A stretch of DNA of 64,000 nucleotides, taken from assembly GCA_963754655.1 (NCBI GenBank), contig CAVWGN010000001.1, forward strand, positions 448,001-512,000, in the 5' to 3' direction. Below are positions 20,410-58,854 of this stretch, piece after piece. The number at the start of each line of letters is the position of its first letter. Position 1 is the stretch's first letter. The position numbers were made by a program, and so were the translations under genes. The notes under the pieces are model-generated. The model worked only from the letters and a program-made list of their open reading frames with translations, was not told the origin of the DNA and searched no databases. This DNA is from an uncultured Chlamydiae bacterium. GTDB taxonomy: Bacteria; Chlamydiota; Chlamydiia; Chlamydiales; Parachlamydiaceae.

Positions 20410-21528
20410 ATGGAAAAGTACAAGGGCATCGGCCTCAATATTAATAATAAAGTGCATTGGACAGATCATCTTGCTCCCATTTGCGTGGCAATGGATGTTC
20501 CTCTATTAATGGTTGATGAAAAACATGCAGAGGAAACCCAAGCTTTGTATCCTGGCCTGCAAGTGCTCATCTGGGATTGGAAAGAATTAAGTCTTCAATC
20601 TCTTGTGGAAAACTTTGATGTTTTTTTCCAATCGCAGTTTTGGCCTCGCTCAGATTTGCAGAGGCAATGCCAGCCCTGGGAAAAACTCTATCACAAAACA
20701 GTGCGTAATGTGCATTGTCCCCACGGATTTTCGGACAAAATGTTTTGGCATAAAAAAAGTGTATGGGAAGATATTCTGCTTATTTATGGCGACAATATGC
20801 TTGATCTTTTGAAAGCGGCGGGAGTTTCAGAGCACCTCAATGTGATTGTACGTTCGGGAAACTATCGCTATCTGTATTATCGAAAACATCAAGCTTTCTT
20901 TGATCAAATTGTAGAAAAGCAGATTTGGAGTCGATTGGATCGCTCAAAACCGACCATTCTTTATGCTCCTACTATTCATCACCATGGAGAAGAGCTTTCG
21001 CTTTCCTTCTTGCAAGCGCGCGAGTTATTCGAGAAGCTTCCGCTAGATTACAATTTAGTGGTCAAGCTTCATCCTGATTTAGAAGAGACAGATGCATCCG
21101 CTCTTTATGCTATGATGGGAAAATACGAGGGTAAAAGCAATATCCTATTTATAAAAGATTTTTCTCTTGTCTATCCTCTTTTAGCTGGCTCAGACATTTA
21201 TTTAGGGGACCTTTCATCAGTAGGCTATGATTTTCTTGCCTTTAATCGTCCCATGTTTTTTCTCAATCATTTAGGACGGGATGCCAAGCAAGATCGTAAT
21301 TTATTTCTCTATCGCTGTGGATTTGAAGTAACACCCGATCAATTTAGAAATTTTTATCATCTATTAGATTCTCAGCTTCCTTTTGACCAAGAACGTTATG
21401 CTGCTATTCGTCAAGAAGTGTATCGCTACACTTTTGGCGAAGAAGTGTCTTTTGAAAATTTGAAAAACGCCATTGTTCAAGCTTGTACATCTCCTCGAAA
21501 ATTAGAAGAATGGGAACCCGAATTTTGA
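20410..21528 (+). CDS. CDP-glycerol glycerophosphotransferase (TagF-like, GT-B fold) family protein
   Basis: CPHG, TILYAPT, VVKLHP, SDIYLGDLSSVGYDFLAFNRPMFF. Confidence 0.8.
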   Translation: MEKYKGIGLNINNKVHWTDHLAPICVAMDVPLLMVDEKHAEETQALYPGLQVLIWDWKELSLQSLVENFDVFFQSQFWPRSDLQRQCQPWEKLYHKTVRNVHCPHGFSDKMFWHKKSVWEDILLIYGDNMLDLLKAAGVSEHLNVIVRSGNYRYLYYRKHQAFFDQIVEKQIWSRLDRSKPTILYAPTIHHHGEELSLSFLQARELFEKLPLDYNLVVKLHPDLEETDASALYAMMGKYEGKSNILFIKDFSLVYPLLAGSDIYLGDLSSVGYDFLAFNRPMFFLNHLGRDAKQDRNLFLYRCGFEVTPDQFRNFYHLLDSQLPFDQERYAAIRQEVYRYTFGEEVSFENLKNAIVQACTSPRKLEEWEPEF

Positions 21529-23528
21529 TGATAGAAACCTCCTCTTTTAATGACCTCCGGGCAAACTTAAGCGAGATTTATGCGTCACTTTATGCACAGT
21601 CAAATGTAGGCGAACGTTCTCTTTATGCAACTTCTTCTTCTGTTTATTTTCAGGGAACTTTAACAGGGCAAATCATCAAGGTTGTAGACAGGGCTTGGCG
21701 TTGGATTCAGCCTTCTTATTCTTCGCCTTCTGTTGAAAGTTCTTTGCAGTTCATTTTAACAACGCTGTTTGATCATGCTGTTCATTGTGCTTATGATACC
21801 CGTCAACGGCGAATTTGGCACAATATGCGCCAGATTGATCAAATGTGGAAAAATGATCTACAGCCTGAAGATTTTGCAAAACAGCGTGAGCATTATGCGG
21901 ACTTTCTTGCAAAAGAGCTCGCAGAATCAATTGAATTTGATCATCCCATTTATTTAGCCGATTTTGATGCAAGGGCGCAACACCCTTTGATTGAAAAAGA
22001 AATCAAAGCCATGCGTCACACCATTGTTAACTTTCATCAGGCCACCCATTTGTTTTGGTCTTTATTCATTAAAGATGAAAATGAAAATGCTTTGCTGCGT
22101 CAGCCTTTAATGCCTTTGATTAAGCCGATGTCGACTTTGCTGGACCATCCTCTTTTTAAAGCTCTTAAAAAAGAAGGACGATGGATACAGATGGAAGGAA
22201 TCATGCAGCAACCCATTCCCGTTGCTCTTCTTGCAAAGTTGCAGGATCCTCAAAGTCTAAGTGTAAATGAAAATAGACGTCTCACATTGTGGGTGCAAAC
22301 TCTAAATCGATGTCAACACTCCATTTCCCCCAGGCTCTTTTCTTGCATTTTAACTGAAATCATGACTGTCATTCATTTGCAAGGCTCTTCTTCATTGACT
22401 TTGCCAGACCTTTTGTATTGGTTTGATCAACAAAACTGCCCAATCATTCATCGAGAAGATCCTGCACATATGGAGTGGCGTGAAAAATTGGGTCCGGGAG
22501 ATAGCATTGAGTGCAATGGTAAACAGTTGATCTTAGGCCAGCAACTAAGTCCAGATAAACTGATTGACGATACTTATAAAATTTTTGAATTAGAGGGTGG
22601 TTTAGATTATGTCGTGAAAATTGCGCATAATCGCTTTCTTTTGCTACTTGAAGAAAGAAAAGCAAGCAGCGAACAAGGTCACTGGGGAGTGCGCTTAGTC
22701 GAAACGATTGTGAATCTGGAAGAAGATGATCAAGAATTAGTTGTGAGTGGGCTTGACCAACAAGGACGCTGTGTGGTGCTTGAAAAATTAACTTCTTCTT
22801 TTGACAGCCAGATGTGGACAAGTCATGATATGCAGTTAACACCAGAAGATGAAAAATCGGCGCTTGTATTTGCCAATCATCTTTTTTGTATGTCTCAGTG
22901 GAAAGCAACGGCTGAAAACCTCTCCTTGCCTCATTTAATGTGGGACAAAGAAGGAGTATTAAAGTCTACGCGACTTCTGAAAAAAGGGCCGGCCAATTAT
23001 AATGAATGGGAAGCTTATTGTGAAAGAGCGGCTGAAGGCAATCCCTATGTTCTCAGTTTCTTGATGAATGTCTCTAAATTAAGTGAACACGACATGGCTT
23101 TATATTATCGACAAGCTATTGAACATACGTTGGAGACAGGAGATATCGATTTAATTGGACGCCCTTTGCCTTTAGGGCATCGTCAGGATATGTATACTCA
23201 ACATGCAAAAAAATTATGTGCACAGGCTCAAGAACTCAGACACAACTGTCTTAAGATCATCACTGCTCATTTAAGAAGGCAAAATCAATATTCTTATAAA
23301 AAGGAAGAGCAATTAAAACAAGCGATTGCCGACAAACTTCTTCAATTTTACCGTGCCTCATCTACTCCAGGAAGATTTTCGCCCGACTTAGAGCAGCAAG
23401 TGATTGCGGCTTTTACTGCTCCTTCTTCTACAAGCAATTCTTTACCCGATTCTTCAGATGCCCAAGACTATTATCAGGAGAAACATGAACTGATGATGGG
23501 GTATAATCAAATTTACCTTTCAACATAA
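21528..23528 (+). CDS. Hypothetical protein, possibly with a degenerate kinase-like central domain
   Basis: Long ORF coupled to the upstream gene (TGATG); YKIFEL..YVVKIA..VVLEKL pattern; no clear family. Confidence 0.6.
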   Translation: MIETSSFNDLRANLSEIYASLYAQSNVGERSLYATSSSVYFQGTLTGQIIKVVDRAWRWIQPSYSSPSVESSLQFILTTLFDHAVHCAYDTRQRRIWHNMRQIDQMWKNDLQPEDFAKQREHYADFLAKELAESIEFDHPIYLADFDARAQHPLIEKEIKAMRHTIVNFHQATHLFWSLFIKDENENALLRQPLMPLIKPMSTLLDHPLFKALKKEGRWIQMEGIMQQPIPVALLAKLQDPQSLSVNENRRLTLWVQTLNRCQHSISPRLFSCILTEIMTVIHLQGSSSLTLPDLLYWFDQQNCPIIHREDPAHMEWREKLGPGDSIECNGKQLILGQQLSPDKLIDDTYKIFELEGGLDYVVKIAHNRFLLLLEERKASSEQGHWGVRLVETIVNLEEDDQELVVSGLDQQGRCVVLEKLTSSFDSQMWTSHDMQLTPEDEKSALVFANHLFCMSQWKATAENLSLPHLMWDKEGVLKSTRLLKKGPANYNEWEAYCERAAEGNPYVLSFLMNVSKLSEHDMALYYRQAIEHTLETGDIDLIGRPLPLGHRQDMYTQHAKKLCAQAQELRHNCLKIITAHLRRQNQYSYKKEEQLKQAIADKLLQFYRASSTPGRFSPDLEQQVIAAFTAPSSTSNSLPDSSDAQDYYQEKHELMMGYNQIYLST

Positions 23529-24308
23529 CGTGATGCAAGAGGCATGTCGTCCCGTGATTTTATCTCTGCGATGAGAATAGAAGTCATAACGATTAGAATA
23601 AGTGCTTAAACGCGCCACCTCAATGTGATGAGGCAGAATTCCTGCTGCTTGGAGTTGATATTCACTAATTGACCAAAAATCAAAGTAGTTCGGTTTTACT
23701 TGAAATTGCCAAAATTCCTCAGGTAGCTCTGTGCGGTAATGAATAAATTCTGCTTCGTCAGGTCCCAAACTCGGTGAAATGCAAACAAGCAGCTCTGATG
23801 GATGAGAACCAAAGGCTTGTTGCATCTCTCGCACAGCGTCACGATATAGATTTGCTACGCTGCCACGCCATCCAACATGAATATTTGCTGCAGCATGATT
23901 TTTAGGATCGTAAAAAAGAGCAACTTGACAATCGGCATGTTTCATCATGAGAGAGACGCCGGGCGTTCCTGTCATCAATCCATCACAGTCTATGATCTCT
24001 TCAGGAGATTGTGTATTGGCTATTGCCATAGACGTTCCATGATTTGCTCTTCCCCACACTAAATTGCTCCAATTTAGAGTATCTCGTTGTAATTGGGTTT
24101 TGATGCGTTCAATATTGAGTTTGACATGTTCATGGTTATCACCTACATGGAAGCCTGTATTGAGACTTGCATAATTTCCTTCACTGCAGCCGCCATGGCG
24201 CAAAAAGACAGCATGTCTGACAGTTGGAATATCACTTAGAAGATCAAATTCTAGCCATTCAATATTTTGGTATTTTTGACGTTGCATATCAAACCTATTA
24301 AAACTCAT
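23520..24308 (-). CDS. pgeF: YfiH/PgeF (polyphenol oxidase/purine nucleoside phosphorylase) family protein
   Basis: RHGGCS, HADCQ, HVGWRG, FYSHRRD..TGR. Confidence 0.9.
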   Translation of the reverse strand: MSFNRFDMQRQKYQNIEWLEFDLLSDIPTVRHAVFLRHGGCSEGNYASLNTGFHVGDNHEHVKLNIERIKTQLQRDTLNWSNLVWGRANHGTSMAIANTQSPEEIIDCDGLMTGTPGVSLMMKHADCQVALFYDPKNHAAANIHVGWRGSVANLYRDAVREMQQAFGSHPSELLVCISPSLGPDEAEFIHYRTELPEEFWQFQVKPNYFDFWSISEYQLQAAGILPHHIEVARLSTYSNRYDFYSHRRDKITGRHASCITLC

Positions 24309-25160: not shown

Positions 25161-25311
25161 ACCGAGGTCAAAGAATCTCAAATGGCTTGATTTGTTTAAT
25201 AGCCTGAAAGGCTTCAAAGAAAATAGCCCAGGGCGCTGCCCTGGGCCATTTTCTTTGAAGCCTTTCAGGCTATTAAACAAATCAAGCCATTTGGGATTTT
25301 TTGACCTCGGT
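25161..25311. repeat. 151-bp REP doublet palindrome without an insertion
   Basis: Arms carry GCCTGAAAGGC/GCCTTTCAGGC; centre GCCCAGGGCGCTGCCCTGGGC; right arm matches about 5612-5665. Confidence 0.85.
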
Positions 25312-25365: not shown

Positions 25366-26280
25366 TTAGACATCCATTTTAGGACTTAACGTCAGCCAGC
25401 CCGCCTGCATCCAACTTTGCAGCCATTTTTGCAAATGATTGGCCACAAATTCATATACAGAAGAGTCTTGTGATTCGATGTATGCACAAGCATCTGTGAG
25501 ATTCGTTCCCATTTTAAAGCATTCTAGCAAAATAAATTCCTCTTTGCTGATTTCACGCCAAGCCAGATGATTGTTCGCATTGCGATAAAGAATAAAGAAA
25601 TAGCTTTTTTCCTTAGGGAGATCTGGAAAGCGATGTTCAAGCCAATAATCCACATCTTGTTTTAAAAAATTTCCACGAAATGTCAAAAGATCGTATTCCC
25701 ATGTAAATAAATTGATATGGGGCTGCAGGTAAAACACTTGTGAGAGCAAACTTTCAGGATTGTCATTGATGAATTGAGCAAGATCTGGCGAAGAATATTG
25801 AGAGGCAATCAGACTTGCCATAAAAGCCCAGTCTAAACTAGCGGCATTTAGAATTAAGGCTTGGTCAGGCTCTCGGTAGCATTCCGCGACCCATTTTGGC
25901 AGGCGCTCTCCCAATAAGTTTAATGACCAATGATTAGGGGGATATTTTAATAAATAGGGAATGCCTATTTTTTCATTAAAGGCATGGGAACCAAATAGGC
26001 GAGTGACCAGAGGAAAATTAGCATGCAAAGTGTTGAGTAAGCGCCACCAATATTGTTGGTTGTAAATTTGCATGCGTTGATGAGGTCGCAATTTGGAGCT
26101 CGGTGTAATATAGCGAGCCGCCTCTTCAGCAATTAAGATGCCATGGGTTGAGTTTGAATAGGGTTGGATTGTGTTATTTTCTCCTAGTCGATTGGTAATG
26201 ACACTGGCAAACCATTCTTGAGTCGCCTTTAATTGACAAGGAGGTTGATCCATATCTTTGTTTAGCGTTTGTTTTTTCAT
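25366..26280 (-). CDS. DUF2063 (HvfC/BufC-like) MNIO partner protein
   Basis: QEWFASVI, RMQIYNQQYWWRL..L...FP, YPPNHWSL..LG; ATGA overlap with the DUF692 gene. Confidence 0.85.
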   Translation of the reverse strand: MKKQTLNKDMDQPPCQLKATQEWFASVITNRLGENNTIQPYSNSTHGILIAEEAARYITPSSKLRPHQRMQIYNQQYWWRLLNTLHANFPLVTRLFGSHAFNEKIGIPYLLKYPPNHWSLNLLGERLPKWVAECYREPDQALILNAASLDWAFMASLIASQYSSPDLAQFINDNPESLLSQVFYLQPHINLFTWEYDLLTFRGNFLKQDVDYWLEHRFPDLPKEKSYFFILYRNANNHLAWREISKEEFILLECFKMGTNLTDACAYIESQDSSVYEFVANHLQKWLQSWMQAGWLTLSPKMDV

Positions 26281-27158
26281 GTCACACCTGCTTTTGAAAC
26301 AAAGGAAGATAAGGGAGGTAATGAATGCTGTTCGTGGATTCCTTGTTGAAATTGTTTTGCTTTTAAGGCTTCTGCCCATGTTTGTTCGAAAGATAGAAGA
26401 TTATCATCCCATTCAAGAAGCGTTGACACACCTCCAGTCAAAGGGTAAATCTCAGCGTAAAGATCCCATACTTCATGACGTACTGGATGATCATGAGTGT
26501 CTAAGACATAGTCTCCAAAGTCAGTATGACCCGCCAAGTGAATTTGAATGACGCGATCTAAGGGAAGATTTTGGTAGTAAGTTTTAGGATCAAAACCATG
26601 GTTACGGCTCGAAACGTAAATATTATTGACATCCAGCATCATATAAGTGTCAGATTGTTCCACAACGGAGCTATAAAATTCCCATTCAGACATTTCATCT
26701 TGTTTAAAAGCCACATACGAAGAGAGATTTTCAAGTGCAAAAGGCAATTCAAGATAGTCTTGAACAATACGAGCTCGTTCGGCAACATACCGAATGACCT
26801 CTTGAGTATAAGGAAGAGGTAATAAATCATGGTAATGAGCCCCGGGAAGATGGCCCCAGCAAAGATGATCTGAAAGCCAAGGAGTTTTAGTCTTGCGAGT
26901 CAAAGCCTTAAGTTTTTTTAAATAGTTAAAATCTAAAGGCGCTGGGCTTCCAATTGCTAAAGATACGCCATGCTGAACGACCGGATAGCGCTCTAGAATA
27001 CGTTCTAAATTTTCAAGGGGCTTTCCTCCTTCTACCATGAAATTTTCACTAATAATTTCAAACCAATCAATTGCAGGTTGAAGGCGAAAAATATCCTCAT
27101 AGTGAGGAACGCGCAATCCAATGCCAATGCCTAAATTGGGAAGCGGTCTTGCTTTCAT
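26277..27158 (-). CDS. DUF692 family multinuclear non-heme iron oxidative enzyme (MNIO; MbnB/TglH/ChrH/BufB-like)
   Basis: GIGLR.PHY, WFEIISENF, HGVSL, SDHLCW, LENLSSY, LDVNNIYV, IHLAGH, DTHD, LLEWD. Confidence 0.95.
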   Translation of the reverse strand: MKARPLPNLGIGIGLRVPHYEDIFRLQPAIDWFEIISENFMVEGGKPLENLERILERYPVVQHGVSLAIGSPAPLDFNYLKKLKALTRKTKTPWLSDHLCWGHLPGAHYHDLLPLPYTQEVIRYVAERARIVQDYLELPFALENLSSYVAFKQDEMSEWEFYSSVVEQSDTYMMLDVNNIYVSSRNHGFDPKTYYQNLPLDRVIQIHLAGHTDFGDYVLDTHDHPVRHEVWDLYAEIYPLTGGVSTLLEWDDNLLSFEQTWAEALKAKQFQQGIHEQHSLPPLSSFVSKAGVT

Positions 27159-27401
27159 CTGAGATTTCCTTGCTCACTTATATCAATAGTGGTTTCATTC
27201 GCGATTTTTCGACTCTAGAGACCTGTTGGCAAATGATTACGCTCTTACGAGGGCGTTCTCTCTTTTGTCAATTTCGAAGGATGGTTCAGCCGCCGAAATT
27301 TCACTTTATATCTGATGGTCAATAATTATGAAAAGATTTAAGAGGTTAAGAAGGAGATTTTTTGTTATTCCTTGTGCTTCAAGCCTCTATTAGAATAAGA
27401 T

Positions 27402-27433
27402 AAAAAATGTGCGCAACGAACTGTTGCGCACAT
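27402..27433 (-). terminator. Intrinsic terminator between the candidate precursor genes and the MNIO gene
   Basis: 11-bp stem ATGTGCGCAAC/GTTGCGCACAT with a T-run on the minus strand. Confidence 0.75.
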
Positions 27434-27452
27434 AACGATTCTGAAATACCTA

Positions 27453-28283
27453 CTAACGATTCAATAAACCACGACGTTCGCTCATGCGACGTTGGGCTTC
27501 TTTGACTGCAAGATTTTTATCTTTGTAGGAGTCTTGACTGGCTAATTGAATAGCCAACGCTTTCCCTTCTGGGTCCAAACTAAGATAAATTGCTCTTCCC
27601 TGAGAACTTAGCATGCCAAGCAGCTGAGGTTCTGTAAAAGTTGCAGTTGAATTCGAAGTTGTCACGGCAGCTCGATTAAAATCATAATCAGTTGTCGTGA
27701 GGTATTCACGATTAAAGTTCGTCAAACCGCCATACTCAGGCGTCGGGCGTGGCGTGGAATCGTAGGTGACTCCACGATAGTCCTCTACATAAGTCGGCGA
27801 CGTTATGCCAGATTGTTGAGTATTATAACTGCTGGGAGGAGAATAAGCATAGCTAATAGAGCTAGAATTATTCCTATCACTTCCTCCCGTTGAGGGAGGA
27901 TTCGCAGAGCGATTATCACTGCCTGATGGATGATTGTAACCCTTGGGAGGTTCACGAAATCCATTTGGCGAGTTGTTTGCACCCTGATCATTTGGTGAAG
28001 CAGTATAACCCCTGTAGCCATTACCTGATGGAGCATTCTGATTTCTTGCGCCACCAGAGTGGCTATTATACCCATTGCCGCTTTGATTAAAGTTGCCTGA
28101 ATTGTTCGCATTAGTGTCGCTGCTTTTGTTACTGTTAACAGCAGGACACCCATGAGCAGCACAACCAGCAGCTAAAAAAATGCCCTGTGCTTCTCCACTA
28201 TCAGCTTGGCCATTGACAGGAGTTGCTGAAGACAGAATCAAAGCTGCTAAGGCAATCTTCACTAGGTCTTTTTTATTTTCCAT
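27453..28283 (-). CDS. Secreted low-complexity protein, candidate MNIO RiPP precursor 2
   Basis: Signal peptide, QGIFLAAGCAAHGC (its only two Cys), Asn/Ser/Gly-rich linker, helical C-terminal domain. Confidence 0.7.
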   Translation of the reverse strand: MENKKDLVKIALAALILSSATPVNGQADSGEAQGIFLAAGCAAHGCPAVNSNKSSDTNANNSGNFNQSGNGYNSHSGGARNQNAPSGNGYRGYTASPNDQGANNSPNGFREPPKGYNHPSGSDNRSANPPSTGGSDRNNSSSISYAYSPPSSYNTQQSGITSPTYVEDYRGVTYDSTPRPTPEYGGLTNFNREYLTTTDYDFNRAAVTTSNSTATFTEPQLLGMLSSQGRAIYLSLDPEGKALAIQLASQDSYKDKNLAVKEAQRRMSERRGLLNR

Positions 28284-28315
28284 ATGATTTTCCTATTACT
28301 GGATTGGCCAATGAA

Positions 28316-28975
28316 TTAGCGATTCCAGCTGTTCGAGCTATTTCCTGAGGATGGATAACTACTCGAATCATCTGTGCTGCTAGAGCTACCTGAACGATTA
28401 GAGTTGTTTCCGCTATTAGTTCCACTTGATGTGTCATAATTGCTCATTCCACTATTGCTCATTCCACTATTGCTCATTCCACTATTGTTCATTCCACTAT
28501 TGTTCATTCCGATCGTGTTATAGCTGCCTTGGCGACTTGTACTAGATCCACCATAACCAGATGTGTTAGATCCACTGCCATAACCAGATGAGTTAGATCC
28601 ACTGCCATAACCAGATGTGTTAGATCCACTGCCATAGCCGGATGTATTAGATCCACCATAGTTCGAGCCTGAGCTTCCATAAGAGCTGCCTGATGTGTCA
28701 TAGCTGTTGTTCATTCCACTCGTATAATTGCTGCCTTGGCGATTATAGGGATTGTTTGCACTAGAATTTGTTCCTGAATTTGATCCAGAGCCAGAATTAG
28801 ATCCTGAACCGCTTCCTGTTGAAGCTCCACAACCGTTTGAACTAGCAGCGCAACCAGCGGCTAATAAAATTCCTTGTGATTCTACTGCATCTGCATGACT
28901 AGCAGCTGGTAGGCTGGATGCTAGCAAAAGAGCGGCTAAGGCCATTTTTGCGAGATCTTTCTTTTTACTTTCCAT
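28316..28975 (-). CDS. Secreted Gly/Ser/Asn-repeat protein, candidate MNIO RiPP precursor 1
   Basis: GGAGG RBS, paralogous N-terminus, QGILLAAGCAASSNGC (its only two Cys), SGYGSGSNT 27-bp and MSNSG 15-bp repeats. Confidence 0.7.
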   Translation of the reverse strand: MESKKKDLAKMALAALLLASSLPAASHADAVESQGILLAAGCAASSNGCGASTGSGSGSNSGSGSNSGTNSSANNPYNRQGSNYTSGMNNSYDTSGSSYGSSGSNYGGSNTSGYGSGSNTSGYGSGSNSSGYGSGSNTSGYGGSSTSRQGSYNTIGMNNSGMNNSGMSNSGMSNSGMSNYDTSSGTNSGNNSNRSGSSSSTDDSSSYPSSGNSSNSWNR

Positions 28976-29360: not shown

Positions 29361-29837
29361 TTAATAGCTTGGACTGATGCGCATATAGGTATTGGGATAA
29401 ATGGAGGTATTGAAGTAGTTGGTTTGATAGGTTCCATGAGGTGTTCCAGGATAGCCTCCATTAGGTCCAGGTCCGGTACTTGTCCCTTGATAGGACGAAA
29501 TACCCGAACTAAAGTTGTCTGAATTATCAAATTTTCTTCCAAAATGAAGATAGCCATCTGTGCGGCCAAATTGACTCGTTACTCTATATTGATAGTCATG
29601 GTAATAGTCAATAGGACTAGAGTCATATAGGGGGTAATCATTTCCATAAATGTCCCCCTCATAGCTATTCCTGCTATAAGCATAAGGATAGCCCTCATAC
29701 GAATAAGCTGTGTTATTATAGTCATAGGCTGTTGTTGCCCCACTATCTTCCCAAAACCCTTGTGCACGTCCGGCCGTTGGTAAAATTAAGGCCAAAAGAA
29801 AAGCGGTAAAAATGTTTTTGACTCGGTCTTGCTTCAT
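29361..29837 (-). CDS. Secreted Tyr-rich low-complexity hypothetical protein
   Basis: GGAGG RBS, ATG at 29837, signal ..GRA|Q, Tyr/Ser/Gly/Asn-rich mature part. Confidence 0.6.
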   Translation of the reverse strand: MKQDRVKNIFTAFLLALILPTAGRAQGFWEDSGATTAYDYNNTAYSYEGYPYAYSRNSYEGDIYGNDYPLYDSSPIDYYHDYQYRVTSQFGRTDGYLHFGRKFDNSDNFSSGISSYQGTSTGPGPNGGYPGTPHGTYQTNYFNTSIYPNTYMRISPSY

Positions 29838-30032
29838 ATCGTTAACCTCCAAAAATTGTGCAATGTTAAACAGAGTTTTCTGAATTCCTTGCACTTAGAA
29901 ATGTCAGGCATTCTCACTAAAATCCAATTTGAAAATAAAAGTATAGAAATTTTTATTTATATTCAAAATGAATAGTCATTTGAGTGGTGAGTTTTATCAG
30001 AGCGGTCACTTAATGGCAAGAGACCTGAAATA

Positions 30033-43819: not shown

Positions 43820-44294
43820 CATATGCGCCGTAAAGCCCCGTCCTTCGAGGCTGACAGGAAATTGATAATTTCGGACTTATAACTTATCTTAATTGGTCTT
43901 GAGTATATTGTGAGTGGTTTCAAAAATTATTTAAAGCCTGAAATTATCAATTTCCTGTCAGTCTCTTCAGGATGGGAATATAAGGCGCAAAATTTCCAAA
44001 ATGCGCTTTAGCATTTTGGAAATTTTAATCTAGTGGCATTTTTTGATTTTCGATATATTGTTTAATGATTGAAATTGGCGCTCCGCCACAAGAGGCTGCA
44101 AAGTCACTTGAAGACCATAGCATGCCCTTCCAGTACGGGCCAAATAACGTGTTGGCGGCCGGGCAGGCCGCGTCGGCCTGTGGATCGAATCTCAATAGAG
44201 ATCGCAAGCAGGAACTAGTAGAAATCCGCGAGGAAGGTCTACTTCTTAAGTTAGCTTAAGGAATCCTCCACATTTATGCGGAGGAGGATGTCAA
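43820..44294. mobile_element. Internally deleted IS605-group element (tnpA and tnpB 3' remnants, both ends retained)
   Basis: Left-end hairpin GTAAAGCCCCGTCCTTC/AGGATGGG; TnpA tail LWSSSDFAASCGGAPISIIKQYIENQ (minus, 44025-44135); TnpB-like tail NVLAAGQAASACG..KQE (plus); right-end hairpin ATCCTCC..GGAGGAT ending TCAA. Confidence 0.8.
43847..43965. mobile_element. 119-bp MITE inserted in the IS605 left end
   Basis: 28-bp TIR GAGGCTGACAGGAAATTGATAATTTCGG (26/28 match); TTC duplicated on both sides. Confidence 0.8.
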
Positions 44295-44335
44295 CTTAAG
44301 ATTGCATATGAGCAATCGCTAAAGAAACGGCAAAA

Positions 44336-45451
44336 ATGAATAGAATTCTTTATTATTTTATAAGCATCCTCTTCACATTAAATGCTATACAAGCAAGCTT
44401 ACCGTCAGATGAAAATACACAAAAAAAAGCGTTGATTTTTGGAGTGACGGGTCAAGATGGACATTACCTTACTGAATTGCTATTAAATAAAAACTATGAA
44501 GTTCATGGTGTTGCAAGGCATGCCCCTTTGCTAGCTAAAACTTCTAGTCAACAATCCAATCAAGATCATTTTTACTTTCACATAGGGGATATTACCAATT
44601 ACTCTCATTTGATTCATTTGATTGGAACAATTCGCCCTGATGAAATCTATAATTTAGCAGCTCAAACTCATGTACAAGCTTCATTTGAATACCCCGAGGA
44701 TACTGCTCAGATTAATGCTTTAGGGACTCTTCGAATTTTGGAGGCAGTGAGGATCTTAGATCTCGAGAAAAAAGTGAAATTTTTCCAAGCCTCTTCCAGT
44801 GAATTGTATGGTCTTGCACAAGAGACGCCGCAAACAGAAAAGACTCCTTTTTATCCTCGCTCACCTTATGGAGTTGCTAAGTTGTATGGCTATTGGATTA
44901 CCGTGAATTATAGAGAATCTTATGACATATTTGCTTGCAATGGAATTTTATTTAACCATGAATCTCCTTTAAGGAATGAAACATTTGTTACGCGCAAGAT
45001 TACCTTGGCAGCTTGCCGACATAAATTAGGGCTGCAAGATGTTCTTTATTTAGGAAATCTAGATGCTAAACGTGATTGGGGATATGCGAAGGACTATGTG
45101 GAGGCCATGTGGTTAATGCTACAACATGAAAAATCTGATGATTATATTATTTCGACAGGTGAAGGATATTCCGTGCGTGAATTTGTTGAACTTGCCTTTA
45201 AAGAACTTGATATTGAAATAGAATGGCGAGGAGAAGGTGTAGAAGAACAGGGAATTGATAAAAAGACAGGAGAAGTCCTCGTAAAAATTGATTCCAAATA
45301 CTATCGCCCAACTGAAGTGACTTATCTTTTAGGCAAAGCTGAAAAAGCTGAAAAAATCCTTAAATGGAAACCCAAAACAAGTTTTAAGGAACTTGTCAAA
45401 ATCATGATTGATGCAGACTATCAAAAAGCATTGAACGAAAAAGCGATGTGA
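44336..45451 (+). CDS. gmd: GDP-mannose 4,6-dehydratase, copy 1, with signal-peptide-like extension
   Basis: [43 protein letters not shown]. Confidence 0.92.
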
Positions 45452-45501
45452 TTTTGTTAAATTTTGAAATATTTATTCTTAACCCTCTCTGAGTAACAAA
45501 T

Positions 45502-46677
45502 ATGTTATTTTATCCTTTTTTCTTTACGCTAGCATGTCTCATTTTTAACTTAACAAATGTATTTGCAAATCATCAAACAATAGACGATGAAAGCAATCAA
45601 CCTAAAAAAGCGATCATTTTTGGCATCACAGGCCAAGATGGTGCTTATCTTACAGAATTCCTTCTAAACAAAAACTATGAAGTTCATGGTGTAATTAGGC
45701 GCTCTTCTTTAGCAAATACCACTCGTCTTGAGTCCTTTATTCAAGATTCAGCAACCTTTAATAAAAGCCTTTTTTTACATTATGGTGACCTAACAGACTC
45801 TATGAGTATTTTTGATCTTATTCAAAGAGTTCAACCGGATGAGATCTACAATTTAGCAGCCCAAAGTCATGTCAGAGTTTCTTTTGATCTTCCTGAATAT
45901 ACAGCAGAAGTAGATGCTCTTGGGACATTGCGTATTTTGGAAACAATTAAGCTATTAAATCTTTCAACAAAAGTAAAATTTTATCAAGCTTCAACAAGTG
46001 AACTCTATGGGCTTGTGCAAGAGACGCCTCAAACAGAAACGACTCCTTTTTATCCTCGCTCACCTTATGGAGTAGCCAAGCTCTATGGCTATTGGATCAC
46101 TGTGAATTATAGAGAATCTTATGGCATATTTGCTTGTAATGGAATTTTATTTAACCATGAATCTCCTCTTAGGGGAGAAACATTTGTTACGCGCAAAATT
46201 ACCTTGGCAGCTTGCCGTCATAAATTAGGGATGCAAGATGTTCTTTATTTAGGAAATCTGGATGCTAAGCGCGATTGGGGATATGCTAAAGACTATGTAG
46301 AGGCTATGTGGCTCATGCTGCAGCAAGATGTACCCAATGACTATGTCATCGCGACAGGCGAAGCACATTCAGTGCGTGAATTTGTTGAGCTTGCTTTTAA
46401 AGAACTTGACATTGGAATAGAGTGGCAAGGAGAAGGCGTAGAAGAGCAGGGTATTGATAAAAAAACAGGAAAAGCCATCGTAAAAATTGATCCTAGGTAT
46501 TACCGCCCAAGTGAAGTTGATTTTCTTTTAGGAAAGGCTGATAAAGCAGAAAAGATGCTTAAGTGGAAGCCTAAAACAAGTTTTAAGGAACTTGTCAAAA
46601 TTATGGTAGAAGCCGATTATAAAATAGGATTAAAGGAAAGAATGTTTATATTGAATGAGCATCCAATAGTATATTAA
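45502..46677 (+). CDS. gmd: GDP-mannose 4,6-dehydratase, copy 2, with signal-peptide-like extension
   Basis: [46 protein letters not shown]. Confidence 0.96.
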
Positions 46678-47702
46678 CAATAAATATGTCAATAGCATTC
46701 CCTGTTAAGTGAATTAAAATTTATAAATGAAAGTAGACCAATAATTGGAGGAGCAGCAATAATGGATAGTTAATGATTATGGTCTACAAAACAAGAACTA
46801 TTTTGAGCGGAGAATACGTAGAAGCTTAAGCGGTTTTTTTCAGAAGGTGCAGTAGTTTTTATTCCTCATTTATATTTTTATTGAGTATTTTGGCTCTTTT
46901 TATCTTTCTGCTTTATTAGTCTTACTTTGGCTTTTGGAAGAAAAAAGATAAATTCCAAACTATAAAACTTATTGTCTTTCTGGCATTCTTTTCAAATTTG
47001 ATTTTTTTCTCAAGTTGTTTGTTGTATTTTTCGCGTGCCTAAATGTAGTACGTATCTTTAACTTATATAGTTCAACAGATTAAGAAATTTAAATTCTCAA
47101 GCAATAACGCTTCTTAGCGCTAAGGATGATCTTCTATATTGTTGAAAATGCCGAGAAAATCAGTCTTTGTTTACACTCATAAAATAGTTGATTAACGATT
47201 TTGCGAACTTATTGCAAAAGTATAAATTTTTATTCATTTACAAAGATTCAAGAGATCGAATTATTTCATATATTTATTTGCTAAGCGATTGAAGGAGGAG
47301 CATCCTTTTTATTCTCTTGATTTTCTAGAATAAAGACACAAATTGAAAAACTTAATTATAGGCCATATATGGTAATTCCCTGTATAGATTTCACCATAAT
47401 ATTCTTTTAAAACTGCGCATCGATTAAGTCATAATGTTTGAAGTACAAGATTTGAACATTGCTAAGTCCTCTAAGGGGAAGCCTTGATAAGCAAGGCAAA
47501 ACAATATTTAAAATTGCAAACTTTTCCGATTTATATTTAACATCTGATCAAGCCAAGAAATAGGAGAAAAATCTTAGGGTTTTCTTTAACATTTAGAAAA
47601 GCAATTATTGGACAAGGGAGAGAATACTTTACTTCTAGACACATTTAACTTTATAAAGAAAATATGTAATCTTTAATTTAATGGGAATATGAAAATCTTT
47701 TA

Positions 47703-49201
47703 GTAATTACTCAGGTCTGCTTAGAGATTAAGTTAAGACTGTGGAAGAAAAATGACTAAAGGATTATCGATAAAAGCTTGTTCTATAGCTTTTAAAATTT
47801 TGAATCCTCTCTTAAGAGCGGTAGAAATAAAGCTTCGCAAGAGGCAAAATATTTTTGCGAAATAGGGTGAACGAAAGCAACCAGAGACCTTCATTTTGAG
47901 TTTCATCATTCGAAGATCGCGTTCGGCTAAGTTATTATCAAATGGAATATTCTTATTTCCTAAAAAGCGCAGCGTTTCTATTTTAACATTTTTCAATCGA
48001 TTAAGTAAATTTTTAGCTTTAGATTGTGCCTATTGTGCAGGACCGGTTTCTTCATATTCTTTAAAACCCCTTTCCAAGATGGCTTCGTACTTTGCTTCAA
48101 ATTCTTTTTGCTTAAGTTGTCTCTCTTCACTTTTATTAATTTCTTGCAATAGCTCCTTCATGTCTTTTGCCCACTTTAGTTTTGTCGTTTCAAAGGCTGC
48201 CTCAAGCTCTCTTAAATGATGAGCGTGGCAAAGAGAATGCTGGCAATCAAACTTAAAGTAAGGAGCATAGTGATCGTGTACAAGAACGCCTCTAAAACTC
48301 GGTAATACATCCATTTCAACCATTGCCAGGTAGCTTCTTCTCGGATGGGCAAAAAATAGCGTTGAGTCTTTAGTTGAGGCAACATGCAACCAAAAAAGTT
48401 GCTTATTTACTTTTAAAGCGGTTTCATCTGCATGCAAAATAGAAGATGTTTTAAGCTTTTTCCTTGAGAATTGCTTCAAAGCTTTGTTAATTTTTAGCTG
48501 TTAATTTTTCCACTCTGAATAAGGAAGCTTGGCTGAGGGTATGGCCAAAAACATCTTGGCAAAACTCTTGTACCCTTTGTGCTGAAACAAAATGATAATT
48601 ATGTAGATAGATAAGTAAGGATTTAAAATGTGGACCGTACTGCACGGGGGCACTTATTTCTTTGGATATACAAGGACGACAAATGGTCTGACAATAGGGA
48701 CATTGAATTTCATGAATATGGTGATCTGTTATCTTAATGCAAAGCTCTGGTATTTCAAACACTTGAGTCTTTGTAATTTGTCTATTAACTTGTTCTACAT
48801 TTTGCCCACATTGAGGGCAGTCTTTTACTTTGTACTCTTTAATTTCATCGGGTGTTTGTGAAGTCTTAAGAGTTCAGCCTTTATGTCCGATTTGTCCCCG
48901 CTTTTCTTGTCACTTTTAGGCTTTTTAGCTACAAATTTTTTAAAAACATCACTAGAAGGCGGCTTCTGACTATTGCTACTATTTCGATTAATTCTTTCCT
49001 CTAAAGCTTTCACTTTCATCTCTAGTTGATGCACTAATTCTTTTAACTTTTGATTCTCTTTCCAAAGAATCAGAATCAATGTATCTTTTTGTTCAGAGGT
49101 TAATTTAGTTAAATCCGGAAGCTTATCCATGCTTAACTCTCTTAATAGAATCTAATTAATTCTATTATAACAGTTTAAGCTTTTTGTGCCTAAGTAGTTA
49201 C
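47703..49201 (-). mobile_element. IS66-family element with frameshifted transposase
   Basis: TIRs GTAATTACTCAGG/CCTAAGTAGTTAC; 8-bp flanks ATCTTTTA/ATTTTTTA; NSSNSQKPPSSD, HADET, CHAHHLREL, PFDNNLAERDLR..K.K.SGCFRS. Confidence 0.9.
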
Positions 49202-49245
49202 ATTTTTTATAGGTAAATTTTCAACGATAAAATATAGAAATAAGC

Positions 49246-50740
49246 GTAACTACTCGGGCTATCAAAATAATTCTATAATTTGTGTATAATAGAGGAGGAT
49301 AACTTGATGGTTTTTTTATGGAAGAGCTCCCCCCTTAATCAATTATCTTTAGAGCAGAAAGATCTGTTGATTATTGAATTATTTGCGTTAGTAAAAGAAT
49401 TAAGAGAAAAAATAGCTTTCTTAGAGAGGAAAAACGCAGAGTTAAAAGCCAAGCTATCTTCTAATAGCCGAAATAGTCACAAGCCACCACCTTCAAGTGA
49501 TGGATTTAAAAAGCCAAAAAGTCTTAGATCCAAGAGTGAAAGACTCAGCGGAGCGCAAAAAGGGCACCTTGGCCATACATTAAAAGAAAGCGATCATCCC
49601 GATCGGGGGAATAGGCATCCCATAAAAAAAATGCCCTCATTGCGCCAGAAGTCTTGGAGAGGAAAATCATTTATATTGGAAAAAAGGCTCAAGTCTTTGA
49701 TATTCTATAACTAAAGATAGAAATAGAAGAATGTTTTTGCCTCAATTGTCAAAAGAGTTGCTCAGCGAACTTCCCTTCAGGAATGCGATTTATGGCCTAA
49801 GAATACAAGCTTTTCTCATCTATTTGAGAGACTATCACTACTTACCAAGTGAACGCACAGTCGAATTTTTTCAAGATGTTTTTCAGCACACTTTAAGCGA
49901 AGGTGTTATCTATCAAGCAGAAATGAATTGTAATGACCATTTAGAAGAGTTCGAAAAGCTGCTAAAGAATGCTTTAAAAGAGGCTCCGTTAAATCATGCA
50001 GATAAGACAACTTTAAGATTAAAAAAAATCATTGGCTACATGTTTTATCTAATCCTTGGTCAACCTATCTTTATATTCACAAAAAACGAGGTGGGAGGCG
50101 ATGGATGAAATAGATATTCTTTCTCACTTTCTTGGAATTCTGGTTCACAATCATTTTAAGCCTTACTTTAAATATGGCTATGAGCATTCATTATGCAATG
50201 CCCATCACTTAAGAGAACTGCAAGCAGTTTTTGATGATACCGGCCATTCATGGGCAGATTTAATGCAAATGTTACTTAAAGAAATTAAAGATACAAAAGA
50301 AACAAAAAGGCTTCTTGCGACTAACAAGAGAGTTTTTCAGACGAATATGATAGACTAATCAATCTTGGATACAAAGAACAAAAGAGCGCTCGCCGCCTTG
50401 TCGCCCAAAAGAGATCTGCTTGCTCGATCGCCTTAAATCTTATAAAACCCCAACTCTTCTTTTTATGTACAAAGAAGAAGTGTCATTTGATAATAACCAA
50501 GCGGAAAGAGACATTCGTATGATGAAACTCAAGATGAAAATAGCTGGGTGTTTCCGCAGTCAACAAGCAGCAAAAGCTTTCTGTCTAATTCGAAGTTATA
50601 TTTTCACCATGAAAAAAAATGGTATGGCTGTATTTCAATTTTTGGCGGATGTCTTTCATCCACCCTCTTCAGATTTCTTCTCAAGTATTCGCTTTTATTA
50701 AATTTGTCAAATCACAAATTATTACAACCTAATTATTTAC
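49246..50740 (+). mobile_element. Second IS66-family element with frameshifted transposase
   Basis: Starts GTAACTACTCGGG, ends CCTAATTATTTAC; flanks [49 protein letters not shown]. Confidence 0.88.
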
Positions 50741-50856
50741 TAATAAGCGCTAATATTGCTTGACTTAATATGGAACCATTTACCATATATCTCTCTACAG
50801 GCGTTAATTTTTTCACACTTGCCCAAGTTTTCAGAATTCAAACAAGAAGGGGGTAT

Positions 50857-51639
50857 ATGATGCGTTTATTCAAAATTCTCGTTTTCTTTTTTAGCTTATT
50901 GACTCATTTTTATAGTCAGGCCGCAGAGATAGAAGTGCCTTCACCATTTTTAATGTATAAAGTCGCTGGTACAGTAGATGAAGCTTGGTTTATAAACTCA
51001 GGAAAAGCATCTCTAGTAGATTTAGAAATTGCTTTGTCAACAGTTGGATATAATTTGACGGATTTTAAGAAAATTTTAGATTGGGGATGTGGTTGTGGAA
51101 GAATTACTCGCCACATGTCCGAAATAAAAAATTATGCTGAAATTCATGGATGTGATATTGATGCAGAGGCAATTAATTGGTCTAAAACTCATATTCCATT
51201 CGTAAATTTTTCTATTTGTGACGGACTTCCTCCAACTCTATATCCAAATAATTATTTCGATTTTATTTTTAGCCATAGCGTTATGACTCATTTGGATGAA
51301 AATTACCAAGATGCATGGTTGGCTGAATTAAAAAGAATTCTTAAGCCAGGAGGAGTGATAATCTTAAGCACCCATGGAGATACTGCAATATCAACATGGA
51401 TTGACTATCTCAGAGCCAATAATATTAATGCAGAACCTTATTTGAATGCTCTCGACCAAAGAGGTATGTGCTTTTGGAAGGATGATCAATGGGGAGGAAT
51501 ATTTCCTGATTTTTATCATTCCGCTTTTCATCGTGCGTGGTATATATATCAGCATTGGGGAAAATTTTTTCAAGTTAAATCCTATTTAGTACAAAGAGGT
51601 TTAGGTTGGCAAGATTATGTTGTAATGATGAAGGAATAG
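50857..51639 (+). CDS. Class I SAM-dependent methyltransferase with signal peptide
   Basis: ILDWGCGCGR, FDFIFSHSVMTHL, RILKPGG; ATG at 50857 after AGAAGGGG; signal ..SQA|A. Confidence 0.88.
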   Translation: MMRLFKILVFFFSLLTHFYSQAAEIEVPSPFLMYKVAGTVDEAWFINSGKASLVDLEIALSTVGYNLTDFKKILDWGCGCGRITRHMSEIKNYAEIHGCDIDAEAINWSKTHIPFVNFSICDGLPPTLYPNNYFDFIFSHSVMTHLDENYQDAWLAELKRILKPGGVIILSTHGDTAISTWIDYLRANNINAEPYLNALDQRGMCFWKDDQWGGIFPDFYHSAFHRAWYIYQHWGKFFQVKSYLVQRGLGWQDYVVMMKE

Positions 51640-51664
51640 TTTAAATTTAGTATACAGGAGGAAA

Positions 51665-52498
51665 ATGTTTATCGTACGCTTGTCTTACTTTTTAATTATT
51701 TTGTTATTAGCCTTTACATTTGATAGTGCATGGGCTCAACAATCACTTTTTCAAAGAATTAGGGGAACAAACCGAAAGGAAATAACTGAATTTGTTAAGC
51801 AATTTCCAGAAGAACAATATAAAGTTTATACAATTCCAGAATATGGAAGTTTTTATCTTGATGATATAGGTGATTATGTCAAAAGCATGTTAATCTCTGG
51901 TCATCCTTGGGAACCGCACATTAGAGAACTAATTTTTAAATATGTTAAACCTAAATCTATTGTATTGGATATTGGGGCTCATATTGGAACACATACATTA
52001 GATATGTCTAAACAAGTGGGACCTAAAGGACGGGTCTTAGCATTTGAACCCCAACCAAAAATTTTTCGAGAATTGTTTTGGAATGCAAGGTTAAATAAAG
52101 CAAAGAATATTTATTTTTATCCGGTTGCTGTAGGGGATCATAATGGCACAATTGAGTTAAGCCCGCTTCTACCTTATAATGAAGCTGGAACGAGTCTTAT
52201 TTGGGGAGGCGCTGGAAAGTTTATGCCTCTAATTACTATCGATTCATTAATGTTGAATAATGTATCTCTTATAAAAATTGATGTTGAACTTCAAGAAAAT
52301 TTAGTCCTAGATGGTGCAAAAGAAACTATTGCAAGGTGCCGTCCTGTAATTCTTATTGAAATTAGAGGAGATTACGGATTTGAAAATGCCCCACCTGCAA
52401 TCAAAGATGAGATTGTATTTACAATATCCAAATTAGAAAGGATGGGATATACAGTTACATGTATAGGTCATGCTGATTTTTTAGCTATTCCCATTTAA
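51665..52498 (+). CDS. FkbM family methyltransferase with signal peptide
   Basis: LDIGAHIGTH, AFEP, IKIDVE..E..VLDGA..TI...RPVILIE; signal ..AWA|Q. Confidence 0.92.
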   Translation: MFIVRLSYFLIILLLAFTFDSAWAQQSLFQRIRGTNRKEITEFVKQFPEEQYKVYTIPEYGSFYLDDIGDYVKSMLISGHPWEPHIRELIFKYVKPKSIVLDIGAHIGTHTLDMSKQVGPKGRVLAFEPQPKIFRELFWNARLNKAKNIYFYPVAVGDHNGTIELSPLLPYNEAGTSLIWGGAGKFMPLITIDSLMLNNVSLIKIDVELQENLVLDGAKETIARCRPVILIEIRGDYGFENAPPAIKDEIVFTISKLERMGYTVTCIGHADFLAIPI

Positions 52499-53375
52499 TG
52501 GAAAAATTAAGATTAGTCATCTACCTTTTCATCGAGCTTATTTTAACTGTGTTTTGAGTTTTTCTCTATTTGATTGCGACTTTGATGTAACCAAATGGCG
52601 AAAAAACTCAAAACACCTTCGATGATTGAACTCCTCGTTGATTTTCTAATTTAGACTCCTTGTATACTTAAATTTCAATATTGTTTACTGGTCAAGGGAT
52701 CAGGAAAGCAAAGAATCAATATTTAACTTCATATTTGAAGTTTTGCAAAATTAATTAATTCACGTTGGCACAGCCCTAAAGTGGCCAGTATATCTTCTCT
52801 TTTCTTATGCCTTTCTGTAATTTCTTCGATAACCCAGCTTATAGTCTTACCAAGAGTCTCTTCTAGTACAAATCGACAAGCTTCACCAATTGTATTTAGA
52901 GTGATTTTTGCCCGTTCACACGGATGATTCTTTTTCAATATTGAAACTAAGAGACTATGCGCTAAGATGACAAGATACATGTGCCTTGTTTGGCTTTGTC
53001 CGCTTCTTAGCTGACATTCTCCCATTCCTAAATATTGTTTGCCATCCCGGTGAAATGTTTCTGTACCACTCCAGCGTTTTTTATAAGCGTTCTATATACG
53101 TCTGACTTCCCACTTGATGCGATTAGTCACTAAAATTTTAACTGGATCTTTATCATTCTTTATGTCCCAAAGAATAAGAATTCGCACTTTATGATCAATG
53201 TTGGGAATGTGGCAGCTCTTCGTAAAATACCATTGTTTTTTTTCCATTCCATTCAATCGTTTTCGGTTTTTCGGCTAAATTGATCCAGCCTCTTCAATTG
53301 CATGCATTTGCTTGCCTTGAAAATCTACCCAACGATCGAACTTCAAATCTCCTACATAAGCTCTATCTAAGCTGT

Positions 53376-53890
53376 TATAGTAATTTCAATTTAAAATTTC
53401 TTAATTGCAAACTTTCAAAAAAGATTGATCAATTGCTTCAGCAAGACTTGAAAATAAGTTTAAAACCTCTTTTACACTCCTCTTAAAATTGGCCCAAAAT
53501 TTTTCAATCGGATTCAAATCAGGAGAATATGGTGGTAAAATAAATTTCACATCCTGCCTTTTGAATGATTTCTACGCTTGTTTTGGACTTATGAAAACTC
53601 GCATTATCCATAATGACCGCTTGTCCTGATTTCAGCTCCGGAACTAAGTTGCTCGAGCCATGCGTTAAATAAATTTGTATTGCATGTTCCGGTATAGCAA
53701 AATGGCGCTAAAATGCTTGATTGATTCTGAGCTGCTATAAAGCTTTCCCTAGAATATCGACTTCCGGAAACTGCTCCATATACTTTTTGTCCTCTGATTG
53801 CCCTTGCATTTTCTCTTTGCAAATATTCATGGATCCCACTTTCATCAATATAGACTCTTTTTTCTTCGGGAATGTCTTCCTAAGTTTAAG
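53376..53890 (-). pseudogene. IS630-family transposase 3' fragment
   Basis: YIDESGI, GTCNTNLFNAWLEQ, VIMDNASFHKS, LPPYSPDLNPIE. Confidence 0.85.
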
Positions 53891-53894
53891 AGCA

Positions 53895-55279: not shown

Positions 55280-55370
55280 ATTTTTAGATTGGAGCTTATA
55301 TTGGAAACACATTCATTAGCTATGTCTAAACGATTAGGGCTATGGAAGGTGAAAGAGTTTTCACAAAGGC
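55280..55370 (+). pseudogene. Degenerate FkbM methyltransferase fragment
   Basis: ATTGGAGCTTATATTGGAAACACATTCATTAGCTATGTCTAAA resembles 51971-52011 (IGAHIGTHTLDMSK). Confidence 0.5.
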
Positions 55371-55430
55371 AGTTGATTGCATCTGTCAATCAAGTTTGAT
55401 CAGAATGGTTTCTATGCAAATTCAATTGCT

Positions 55431-56369: not shown

Positions 56370-56469
56370 TTTTCTATTTCCTTTTTTTTTTGTAATTTAT
56401 GCTTATAGCATTTAAAAAATCATAAAGATAAACGTAGGCAATTCAGTTAAAATTTGATTATGAAGAAAA

Positions 56470-58815: not shown

Positions 58816-58854
58816 GAATATTCCTTTGTCAATTGTGTTTTTATATTCAAGCTA

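Follow-up and report, generated by a model that had tools for sequence, protein, structure and literature searches.

A chlamydial bufferin-2-type operon with the two-Cys head of long secreted proteins as its only visible candidate substrate

Here, we describe an operon on the minus strand of a 64,000-nucleotide (nt) stretch of DNA (the window) from an uncultured member of the Parachlamydiaceae (GenBank assembly GCA_963754655.1, contig CAVWGN010000001.1, positions 448,001 to 512,000), in which the genes for two long secreted precursors, PreA and PreB, stand upstream of the genes for an MNIO of the DUF692 family and its DUF2063 partner. Judged from its sequence, the operon is a chlamydial derivative of the bufferin-2 system in which a two-Cys head on PreA and PreB is the only visible substrate, and it belongs to the bufferin/captophorin-type operons, which are widespread in environmental Chlamydiota. 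We give a probability of about 60% to the reading that the MNIO and its DUF2063 partner convert the two head Cys of PreA and PreB into 5-thiooxazole rings, because such heads are linked to MNIO genes, their Cys are invariant, no other candidate substrate was found, and they resemble proven cassettes. Thiooxazole formation and copper binding at the locus are both predictions of this kind, read from the DNA and from its likeness to characterized systems.

Two-Cys heads and their enzyme pair

The initial annotation had described PreA and PreB as tandem paralogues that share a conserved leader and hold only two Cys each, and both points stand: similarity between the two proteins is confined to residues 1-51, of which 31 are identical (E 1e-16), and the only Cys are at positions 42 and 49 in PreA (C-x6-C) and at positions 41 and 46 in PreB (C-x4-C). 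The common part opens with a K-rich N-terminus that leads into a hydrophobic core and an AxA-like site; behind a short spacer of acidic residues come the hydrophobic patch I/F-L-A-A-G and the two Cys, with the head strings LLAAGCAASSNGC in PreA and FLAAGCAAHGC in PreB and the Cys segments GCAASSNGC and GCAAHGC, respectively. Both precursors are predicted to carry Sec-type signal peptides, as judged by reading the sequence (K-rich N-region, hydrophobic core, AxA-like sites) and by leader conservation in the alignment of heads (A2). The AxA-like sites, SHA|D and GQA|D, lie ~13 residues before the Cys, and the conserved two-Cys head stands 12-15 residues past the likely cleavage site. Neither protein matches a Pfam family at E <= 0.01, DUF2282 (Buf1) included, and PreB matches none at E <= 1; neither matches the BufA2 model (NF050166), and a six-Cys core with C-K/A-G motifs is absent from both. 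Repeated E-G-K-C-G motifs are likewise lacking, each precursor having a single C-x4-6-C pair without EGK context, and a Protein Atlas look-up with PreB gave no usable match.

Behind the head, both proteins had been annotated as low-complexity, disordered tails, which is borne out for PreA and needs revision for PreB. The PreA tail of 167 aa consists of 35% S, 21% G, 17% N, 7% T and 7% Y, with tandem repeats of 27 nt (x3.9) and 15 nt (x4.8), and residues ~153-179 (28439-28519) form five S-G-M-[NS]-N repeats that bring six Met into a short stretch. Met-rich repeats are known from some periplasmic copper proteins. In PreB, the head is followed by a 156-aa low-complexity linker rich in N/S/G/P/T/Y and then by a conserved, folded BufA2-like domain of ~65 aa.

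The head is conserved far beyond chance, because it is carried by 69 of 400 genomes sampled from the phylum (A2 model match at E <= 1e-6) and by 449 representatives in a library of 1.84 billion protein cluster representatives (E <= 0.001). PreA and PreB match the A2 model at E 2e-13 and E 1e-13, respectively, and are its only matches in their own genome (3.16 Mb, 2 contigs, 96.7% complete), where the next match stands at E 0.36. Among 50 aligned heads with a mean identity of 32%, the columns of C41 and C46 of PreB are the only invariant ones (A2). In 61 heads of relatives, the residue before the first Cys is G in 39 and small (G, S or A) in 51, the residue after it is G in 33, the residue before the second Cys is G or K in 43 and the one after it is G in 37, with a Cys spacing of mostly x3-x5. 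The best 150 of the 449 library representatives were all matched at their N-termini, and 149 of these 150 keep the Cys pair: 65 have the head only, 47 the head and a Cys-less domain, 34 the head and a domain with at least 5 Cys, and 3 the head and a domain with 1-4 Cys, while 1 lacks the head pair; exactly two Cys are present in 50 of the 150. A conserved C-terminal 'NR' end was considered as a sorting signal and rejected, since it is present in only 12 of these best 150 representatives.

The head is also specific to such operons, being found almost only just upstream of MNIO genes. Seventy-seven matches in 56 genomes span both Cys, and 64 of them sit 135-2848 nt upstream of an MNIO gene on the same strand, so that head homologues prove linked to DUF692 genes within 3 kb, and the case that the initial annotation had named as refuting, homologues without this linkage, does not apply. 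The other 13 matches fall outside that range, 5 of them truly elsewhere and 8 in fragmented assemblies or beside contig ends.

The enzyme pair can be assigned from profile matches to the bufferin-maturase families (a BufB-type MNIO and a DUF2063 partner), in agreement with the initial annotation. The MNIO matches PF05114 (DUF692) at E 1e-104 and NCBIfam NF050167 (MNIO_BufB) with 325.1 bits (cut-off 310), and it is under the cut-offs of the HvfB (250 vs 360), ApyH, ChrH and MbnB models. It is the sole MNIO of its genome and retains all invariant columns of an MNIO alignment (A3). Its closest solved relative is 3BWW (E 4e-48), followed by TglH, and an Asp occupies the site where 3BWW has Phe. 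The DUF2063 partner matches PF09836 (48.3 bits, cut-off 27.2), with a weak C-terminal part that resembles a RiPP recognition element (RiPP, a peptide that is made on the ribosome and then modified post-translationally; NGO1945_C, 18.9 bits, cut-off 27), and its profile had no match to PDB sequences at 0.01.

Operon layout, the PreB domain and loci of relatives

The minus strand carries the whole set, in the transcription order PreA, PreB, hairpin, MNIO and DUF2063 (Table 1). The gap of 294 nt between PreB and the MNIO gene contains a hairpin and T-run, which is likely an intrinsic terminator or attenuator placed between precursor and enzyme genes, and the hairpin sequence is common to the window and two of the relatives' loci (L034 and L036). 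The ATG of DUF2063 at 26280 overlaps the MNIO stop (ATGA), and the two genes, as had been annotated, are translationally coupled. A promoter scan yielded 7 sites, fewer than the mean of 13.9 in shuffled sequence, and no promoter was assigned. The locus does not contain a DoxX gene, and the genome's single copy lies ~544 kb away.

Table 1. Features of the operon, with positions in the window; all lie on the minus strand.
Feature	Position	Strand	Evidence and remarks
PreA	28975..28316	-	Open reading frame (ORF), 219 aa; without a match in Pfam or NCBIfam
PreA head core, residues 37-52, LLAAGCAASSNGCGAS	28820..28867	-	Read from sequence; Cys columns invariant in alignment A2
PreB	28283..27453	-	ORF, 276 aa
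PreB head core, residues 36-49, FLAAGCAAHGCPAV	28137..28178	-	Read from sequence; C41, C46 invariant among 50 heads
PreB C-terminal Cys-less BufA2-like domain (predicted)	27456..27644	-	Alignment A1; AlphaFold2 model
Hairpin and T-run 3' of PreB	27433..27407	-	Pattern scan; fold -18.8 kcal/mol, z -5.9
BufB-type MNIO (DUF692), 293 aa	27158..26277	-	PF05114, NF050167
DUF2063 partner (BufC / PME1 type), 304 aa	26280..25366	-	PF09836

The C-terminus of PreB is best read as the chlamydial BufA2-like scaffold minus its 32-residue six-Cys core. When the C-terminal 76 residues of PreB, together with five proteins like it, were aligned with eight six-Cys relatives (alignment A1), both flanks aligned (LTExQLLxxLxxQGxxxYxSLxxEGKALAxxLAS before the core and DKNLAVKEAQRR after it), and a 32-column gap takes out all six Cys of the BufA2-like core from PreB. 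PreB matches a hidden Markov model (HMM) of this A-domain (97 positions that span a helical part, the six Cys and the tail DKNLAVK), built by us from the relatives' loci, at E 1e-7. In a search of the window's own genome with a relative's six-Cys protein, only the two PreB flanks matched, and these abut in the DNA. An AlphaFold2 model of the Cys-less domain predicts a compact unit of four helices with a mean predicted local distance difference test score (pLDDT) of 81 (>90 in the core), for which Foldseek returned nothing from the PDB at E <= 0.001. A search with the PreB-type alignment gave 5 loci, all from Parachlamydiaceae, Parachlamydiales or Chlamydiae metagenome-assembled genomes.

A close MNIO homologue is present in 139 of the 400 genomes sampled from the phylum; for the window's own family the figure is 44 of 45, and for another family, with genomes of 1.0-1.3 Mb, it is 0 of 29. 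The system is common in amoeba-associated chlamydiae and was not found in the 29 small genomes, a pattern that fits a putative role inside protists. Eighty loci of 8.3 kb were fetched and compared together with the window (81 loci). MNIO identity to that of the window is 70-91% across the fetched loci, and the DUF2063 gene is directly downstream of the MNIO gene in 79 of 81 loci, the two misses being at contig ends; identity of the DUF2063 partner to that of the window is 30-74% (median 41%, the window's own row included).

The loci were classed with the A-domain HMM, a head HMM (53 positions comprising the signal peptide, L-x-A patch and two Cys, also built from relatives' loci) and regular expressions. 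Every match of the head and A-domain models shares its strand with the MNIO gene, and with a single exception these matches lie upstream of it. One or more head genes are found in 48 of 81 loci and a gene for an A-domain with 5-7 Cys in 52; both are present in 30, heads only in 18 (the window included), the A-domain only in 22 and neither in 11, some of which are cut off upstream. The head is fused to a domain of at least 5 Cys in 10 loci and to a Cys-less A-domain (PreB type) likewise in 10. Against the BufA2 model of NCBIfam, three six-Cys A-domain proteins of relatives gave E values of 1e-9, 1e-5 and 1e-9, with scores below its 60-bit cut-off, and such proteins matched no Pfam family, and because of this we call them a divergent chlamydial form of bufferin-2 precursors. 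The heads are often fused to such a six-Cys BufA2-like domain or lie beside it, and for this reason the free-standing, distinct family that had been proposed gives way to a chlamydial branch of the bufferin-2 ('Cys-Lys' captophorin) system.

In a quick MNIO tree with 12 of 78 inner branches well supported, head-only loci are scattered over several branches, and rough counts give at least 15 gains or losses for the six-Cys gene, at least 11 for heads and at least 7 for the PreB type. The three nearest relatives of the window (L034, L035 and L036) have a separate six-Cys gene between a PreB-like gene and the MNIO gene. In the window, the 294-nt gap holds no remnant of such a gene, relatives matching only the PreB end, the hairpin and the MNIO start, and a search of the genome with the BufA2 model and with a relative's six-Cys protein found no six-Cys precursor.

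Some relatives carry further variants of these precursors. A tandem head-like motif occurs in L044, L049, L052 (also L013, L018 and L021) and L054, as S-C-G-G-S-A-S-C-G-G-Q-P-P-V repeated 3-4 times or as A-G-C-G-N/S-R repeats, and resembles EGKCG arrays, as if the head unit had been multiplied. Ten loci of other families (L065, L070, L075, L082, L092, L094, L106, L108, L109 and L111) encode a BufA2-like protein before the MNIO, with a true lipobox (e.g. L-x-G-G-C at ~residue 22) and five further Cys, and these proteins resemble precursors of the bufferin-2 kind with a lipid anchor. In headless six-Cys proteins, a hydrophobic patch that has no Cys is often retained at the corresponding position (YLTLLAAAS, FLELVAST), which hints that the patch may be a recognition element.

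Several features of the neighbourhood were also recorded. A short way upstream of PreA, an ORF at 29361-29894 (-) encodes a Cys-free protein with a signal-peptide-like start (MKQDRVKNIFTAFLLALILPTAGRAQG), which is of low complexity and rich in Tyr/Asn/Gly/Ser and matches no family and not the head model. A perfect 121-nt palindrome lies at 25175-25295, 70 nt 3' of the stop codon of DUF2063, and as RNA it folds with -99.8 kcal/mol (z -18.8). Its arm of 55-70 nt is found at no fewer than 40 genomic sites, in many cases as pairs in inverted orientation separated by 450-2600 bp, and the palindrome resembles a small mobile element's terminal inverted repeat whose two arms abut. Sub-threshold look-alikes of microRNA hairpins were its sole matches in Rfam. 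A Cu-oxidase_4 (YfiH-type) gene at 23520-24308 (-) adjoins a 681-aa ORF at 21483-23528 (+) that has no Pfam match, with no operon link seen. The window also encodes a Pom-family outer-membrane protein, which assigns the organism to the environmental Chlamydiota, and its G+C content drops from ~40% to 29-37% over 44000-60000.

Proposed mechanism and alternatives

With no six-Cys precursor found in the genome, the intact enzyme pair is left with the head as its only visible substrate, and the head would represent a single di-Cys cassette (a small residue or Lys, Cys, another small residue, x2-4, either Gly or Lys, then Cys and Gly). The MNIO/DUF2063 pair would act on it in the cytoplasm, before Sec export, and turn both Cys into thiooxazoles. 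The modified proteins would leave by the Sec pathway with removal of the signal peptide, and each mature protein would display one two-ring Cu(I)-binding site near its N-terminus, on a long disordered tail in the periplasm, where it would buffer copper. The hairpin 3' of PreB may keep precursor transcripts in excess over enzyme transcripts, and the Cys-less helical domain of PreB may be retained for another role, possibly docking onto the DUF2063 partner. A role in copper defence inside a protist, which the initial annotation had suggested, is putative.

A three-chain fold of the MNIO, DUF2063 and the PreB head, run with alignments, scored 0.60 (best of 3 controls 0.01), which is rated as 'weak support' on a scale whose mark is reached by 116 of 157 solved complexes and by 2 of 215 mismatched pairs. 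The runs share at least 47% of contacts, the pLDDT of the partner is at least 50, and the score is 0.00 with DUF2063 replaced. This pass may reflect likeness to modelled and partly solved complexes of the family.

Several points weigh against thiooxazole formation on the heads. At x4-x6 spacing, the two Cys could simply form a disulfide. All 8 head-only loci examined keep the active-site pair of Asp (EWDDN) that loci with six-Cys precursors also have, and the second Asp of this DD motif has been tied to substrates with Lys after Cys (PMC13097082), whereas the heads have Ala or Pro after Cys. Unlinked heads occur in well-assembled genomes (two each in G376 and G318, one in G039), and a close PreB homologue (P0013) is without a head. 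The locus classes rest on HMMs and regular expressions built from the same loci, and five head calls are doubtful (L042, L077, L080, L086 and L112). For the fold, a score of 0.60 or less is found in only 18 of those 157 solved complexes and in both mismatched pairs that pass.

The DD motif shared with loci that have Cys-Lys substrates, the unlinked heads and the headless homologue would also fit an account that we consider unlikely but a serious contender, in which the six-Cys substrate gene was lost and the enzyme pair is a leftover or acts on a substrate encoded elsewhere, PreA and PreB being secreted, mostly disordered envelope or periplasmic proteins whose Cys form a disulfide loop or bind metal unmodified. 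Since the three nearest relatives still hold the six-Cys gene, its loss in the window's lineage would be recent. This account has to contend with an MNIO and DUF2063 that are intact and coupled, the MNIO retaining every invariant column, with 18 of 81 loci that are head-only on several branches of the weakly supported tree, and with two Cys that are the sole invariant positions of the head; nor did the BufA2 model or the relative's protein find another candidate in the genome. Modification of the head by a different chemistry, or for a different role (some other MNIO reaction, binding of a different metal, or long Tyr/Asn/Ser-rich tails that serve in redox or adhesion), is improbable in our estimate, as the MNIO is above the curated BufB equivalog cut-off and six-Cys bufferin-2-like precursors accompany it in most relatives, even though many different reactions are catalysed by MNIOs (PMC12452194), the precursor fits no published group, and the PreA tail has its six Met in SGM[NS]N repeats.

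We give very little weight to a reading of L-A-A-G-C as a lipobox, by which PreA and PreB would be membrane-anchored lipoproteins with an acylated first Cys. A PROSITE-like context is found in 9 of 59 relatives' heads and the classical L-[ASTVI]-[GAS]-C in 4 of 59; the first Cys stands at a median position of 43, at 35 or below in 3 heads only and at 41 and 42 in PreB and PreA; acidic residues separate the hydrophobic core from the Cys, with K or H at -1 in several heads; and the AxA-like sites of PreA and PreB lie well before the Cys. These points outweigh the small residue that precedes the first Cys in most heads, after the hydrophobic L-x-A patch, the true lipoboxes at ~residue 22 in BufA2-like proteins of some other chlamydial families, and the use of the lipoprotein pathway by some MNIO products (PMC13056109).

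Beyond conversion of the head Cys into thiooxazoles, we advance only tentatively, and at less than even odds, the wider claim that the two-Cys head suffices on its own as a minimal thiooxazole cassette and has replaced the six-Cys core in many environmental chlamydiae, that the enzyme pair decorates whole secreted proteins of 20-30 kDa that are largely disordered, and that the PreB scaffold is kept for a second role, e.g. partner docking. Several chlamydial MNIO pairs have been left without a substrate because published surveys seek short or Cys-rich ORFs, and if the claim is true, two-Cys heads on long proteins would fill this gap as the smallest natural substrate unit, the range of the enzymes would extend from peptides to whole disordered proteins, and the window's genome would be a natural experiment in which nothing but the head maintains selection on the enzyme pair. 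A single genus here allows a clean comparison between an enzyme that has a six-Cys substrate and the same enzyme that lacks one.

Comparison with known systems

Bufferin and captophorin enzymes make up one of the largest groups of RiPP enzymes, and the operon bears on what decides which Cys they modify. BufB and BufC have been reported as necessary and sufficient for conversion of BufA1 Cys into 5-thiooxazoles, and bufferins as protecting against copper (Leprevost et al., 2024, PMC11626156); the reference list of that paper includes a study on copper in protozoan grazing, and it names Chlamydia once, in a taxon list. The nearest known system is bufferin 2 (BufA2-BufB2-BufC2 of Caulobacter vibrioides; Buf_6/12Cys, 'Cys-Lys' captophorins; PMC11626156, PMC12452194, PMC13097082), with which the operon shares a BufB-type MNIO, a DUF2063 gene directly downstream, the order precursor-MNIO-partner and Sec signal peptides, with sub-cut-off BufA2 matches among the precursors of relatives and the flanks of that domain in PreB. 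Unlike bufferin 2, PreA and PreB are without the six-Cys core and have as candidate core the two-Cys head beside the signal peptide; they are long, with low-complexity tails, an additional helical part is present in the chlamydial domain, and DoxX is missing from the locus.

The head is closer in form to the EGKCG 'Lys-Cys' captophorins (oxazolin HvfA, PMC11252979; fontiphorin FonA and bulbicupramide MmrA). The FonA and MmrA cassettes, K-C-G-x-G-K-C-G with C-x4-C spacing, have each Cys converted into a thiooxazole (PMC13097082, PMC12538549), and the likeness lies in a di-Cys cassette with C-x4-C spacing, in small residues or Lys that flank the Cys, in being a proven or, here, predicted substrate of an MNIO/DUF2063 pair and in a product that can remain part of a larger protein. 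The window differs in having one cassette rather than an array, with G-C-A...G-C-P/G in place of the Glu-Gly-Lys context, and an MNIO under the HvfB cut-off with Asp where 3BWW has Phe.

The 'CxxxxC' family (Antoine et al., 2025, PMC12452194) likewise combines a signal peptide and a conserved C-x4-C with an MNIO, DUF2063 and sometimes DoxX nearby; half of its clusters carry a Lactamase_B_2 gene, whereas none is present among the ORFs neighbouring the operon. That study screened ORFs <200 aa with a signal peptide. Its Fig. 7B list includes MNIOs of Protochlamydia and Waddlia with no precursor column filled, CxxxxC included, and the same source credits Protochlamydia, Waddlia and Neochlamydia each with a single DUF692, DUF2063 and DoxX, but with no Buf1, Buf2 or EGKCG precursor, and classes one Criblamydia MNIO as Buf2-associated. 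Judged from these published listings, membership of PreA and PreB in this family looks unlikely, but the family may still overlap with the two-Cys heads.

The captophorin data (PMC13097082) hold 15 chlamydial MNIO-PME1 rows, and their 'Cys-rich ORF' table includes chlamydial six-Cys ORFs and fused ORFs of a head plus six Cys; three chlamydial partner proteins searched for in this table are without a row there, and it does not contain GCAAHGC or LAAGCAA of the window or the head string of one relative. The two-Cys heads are not described in the published tables of PMC12452194 and PMC13097082 that were examined, and full-text literature searches that combined chlamydiae with DUF692 or with bufferins returned nothing further. 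The class, its enzymes and its likely chemistry are therefore already known; what the operon adds to these systems is the head-only state and the Cys-less BufA2 scaffold, which together provide a directly testable case on substrate choice.

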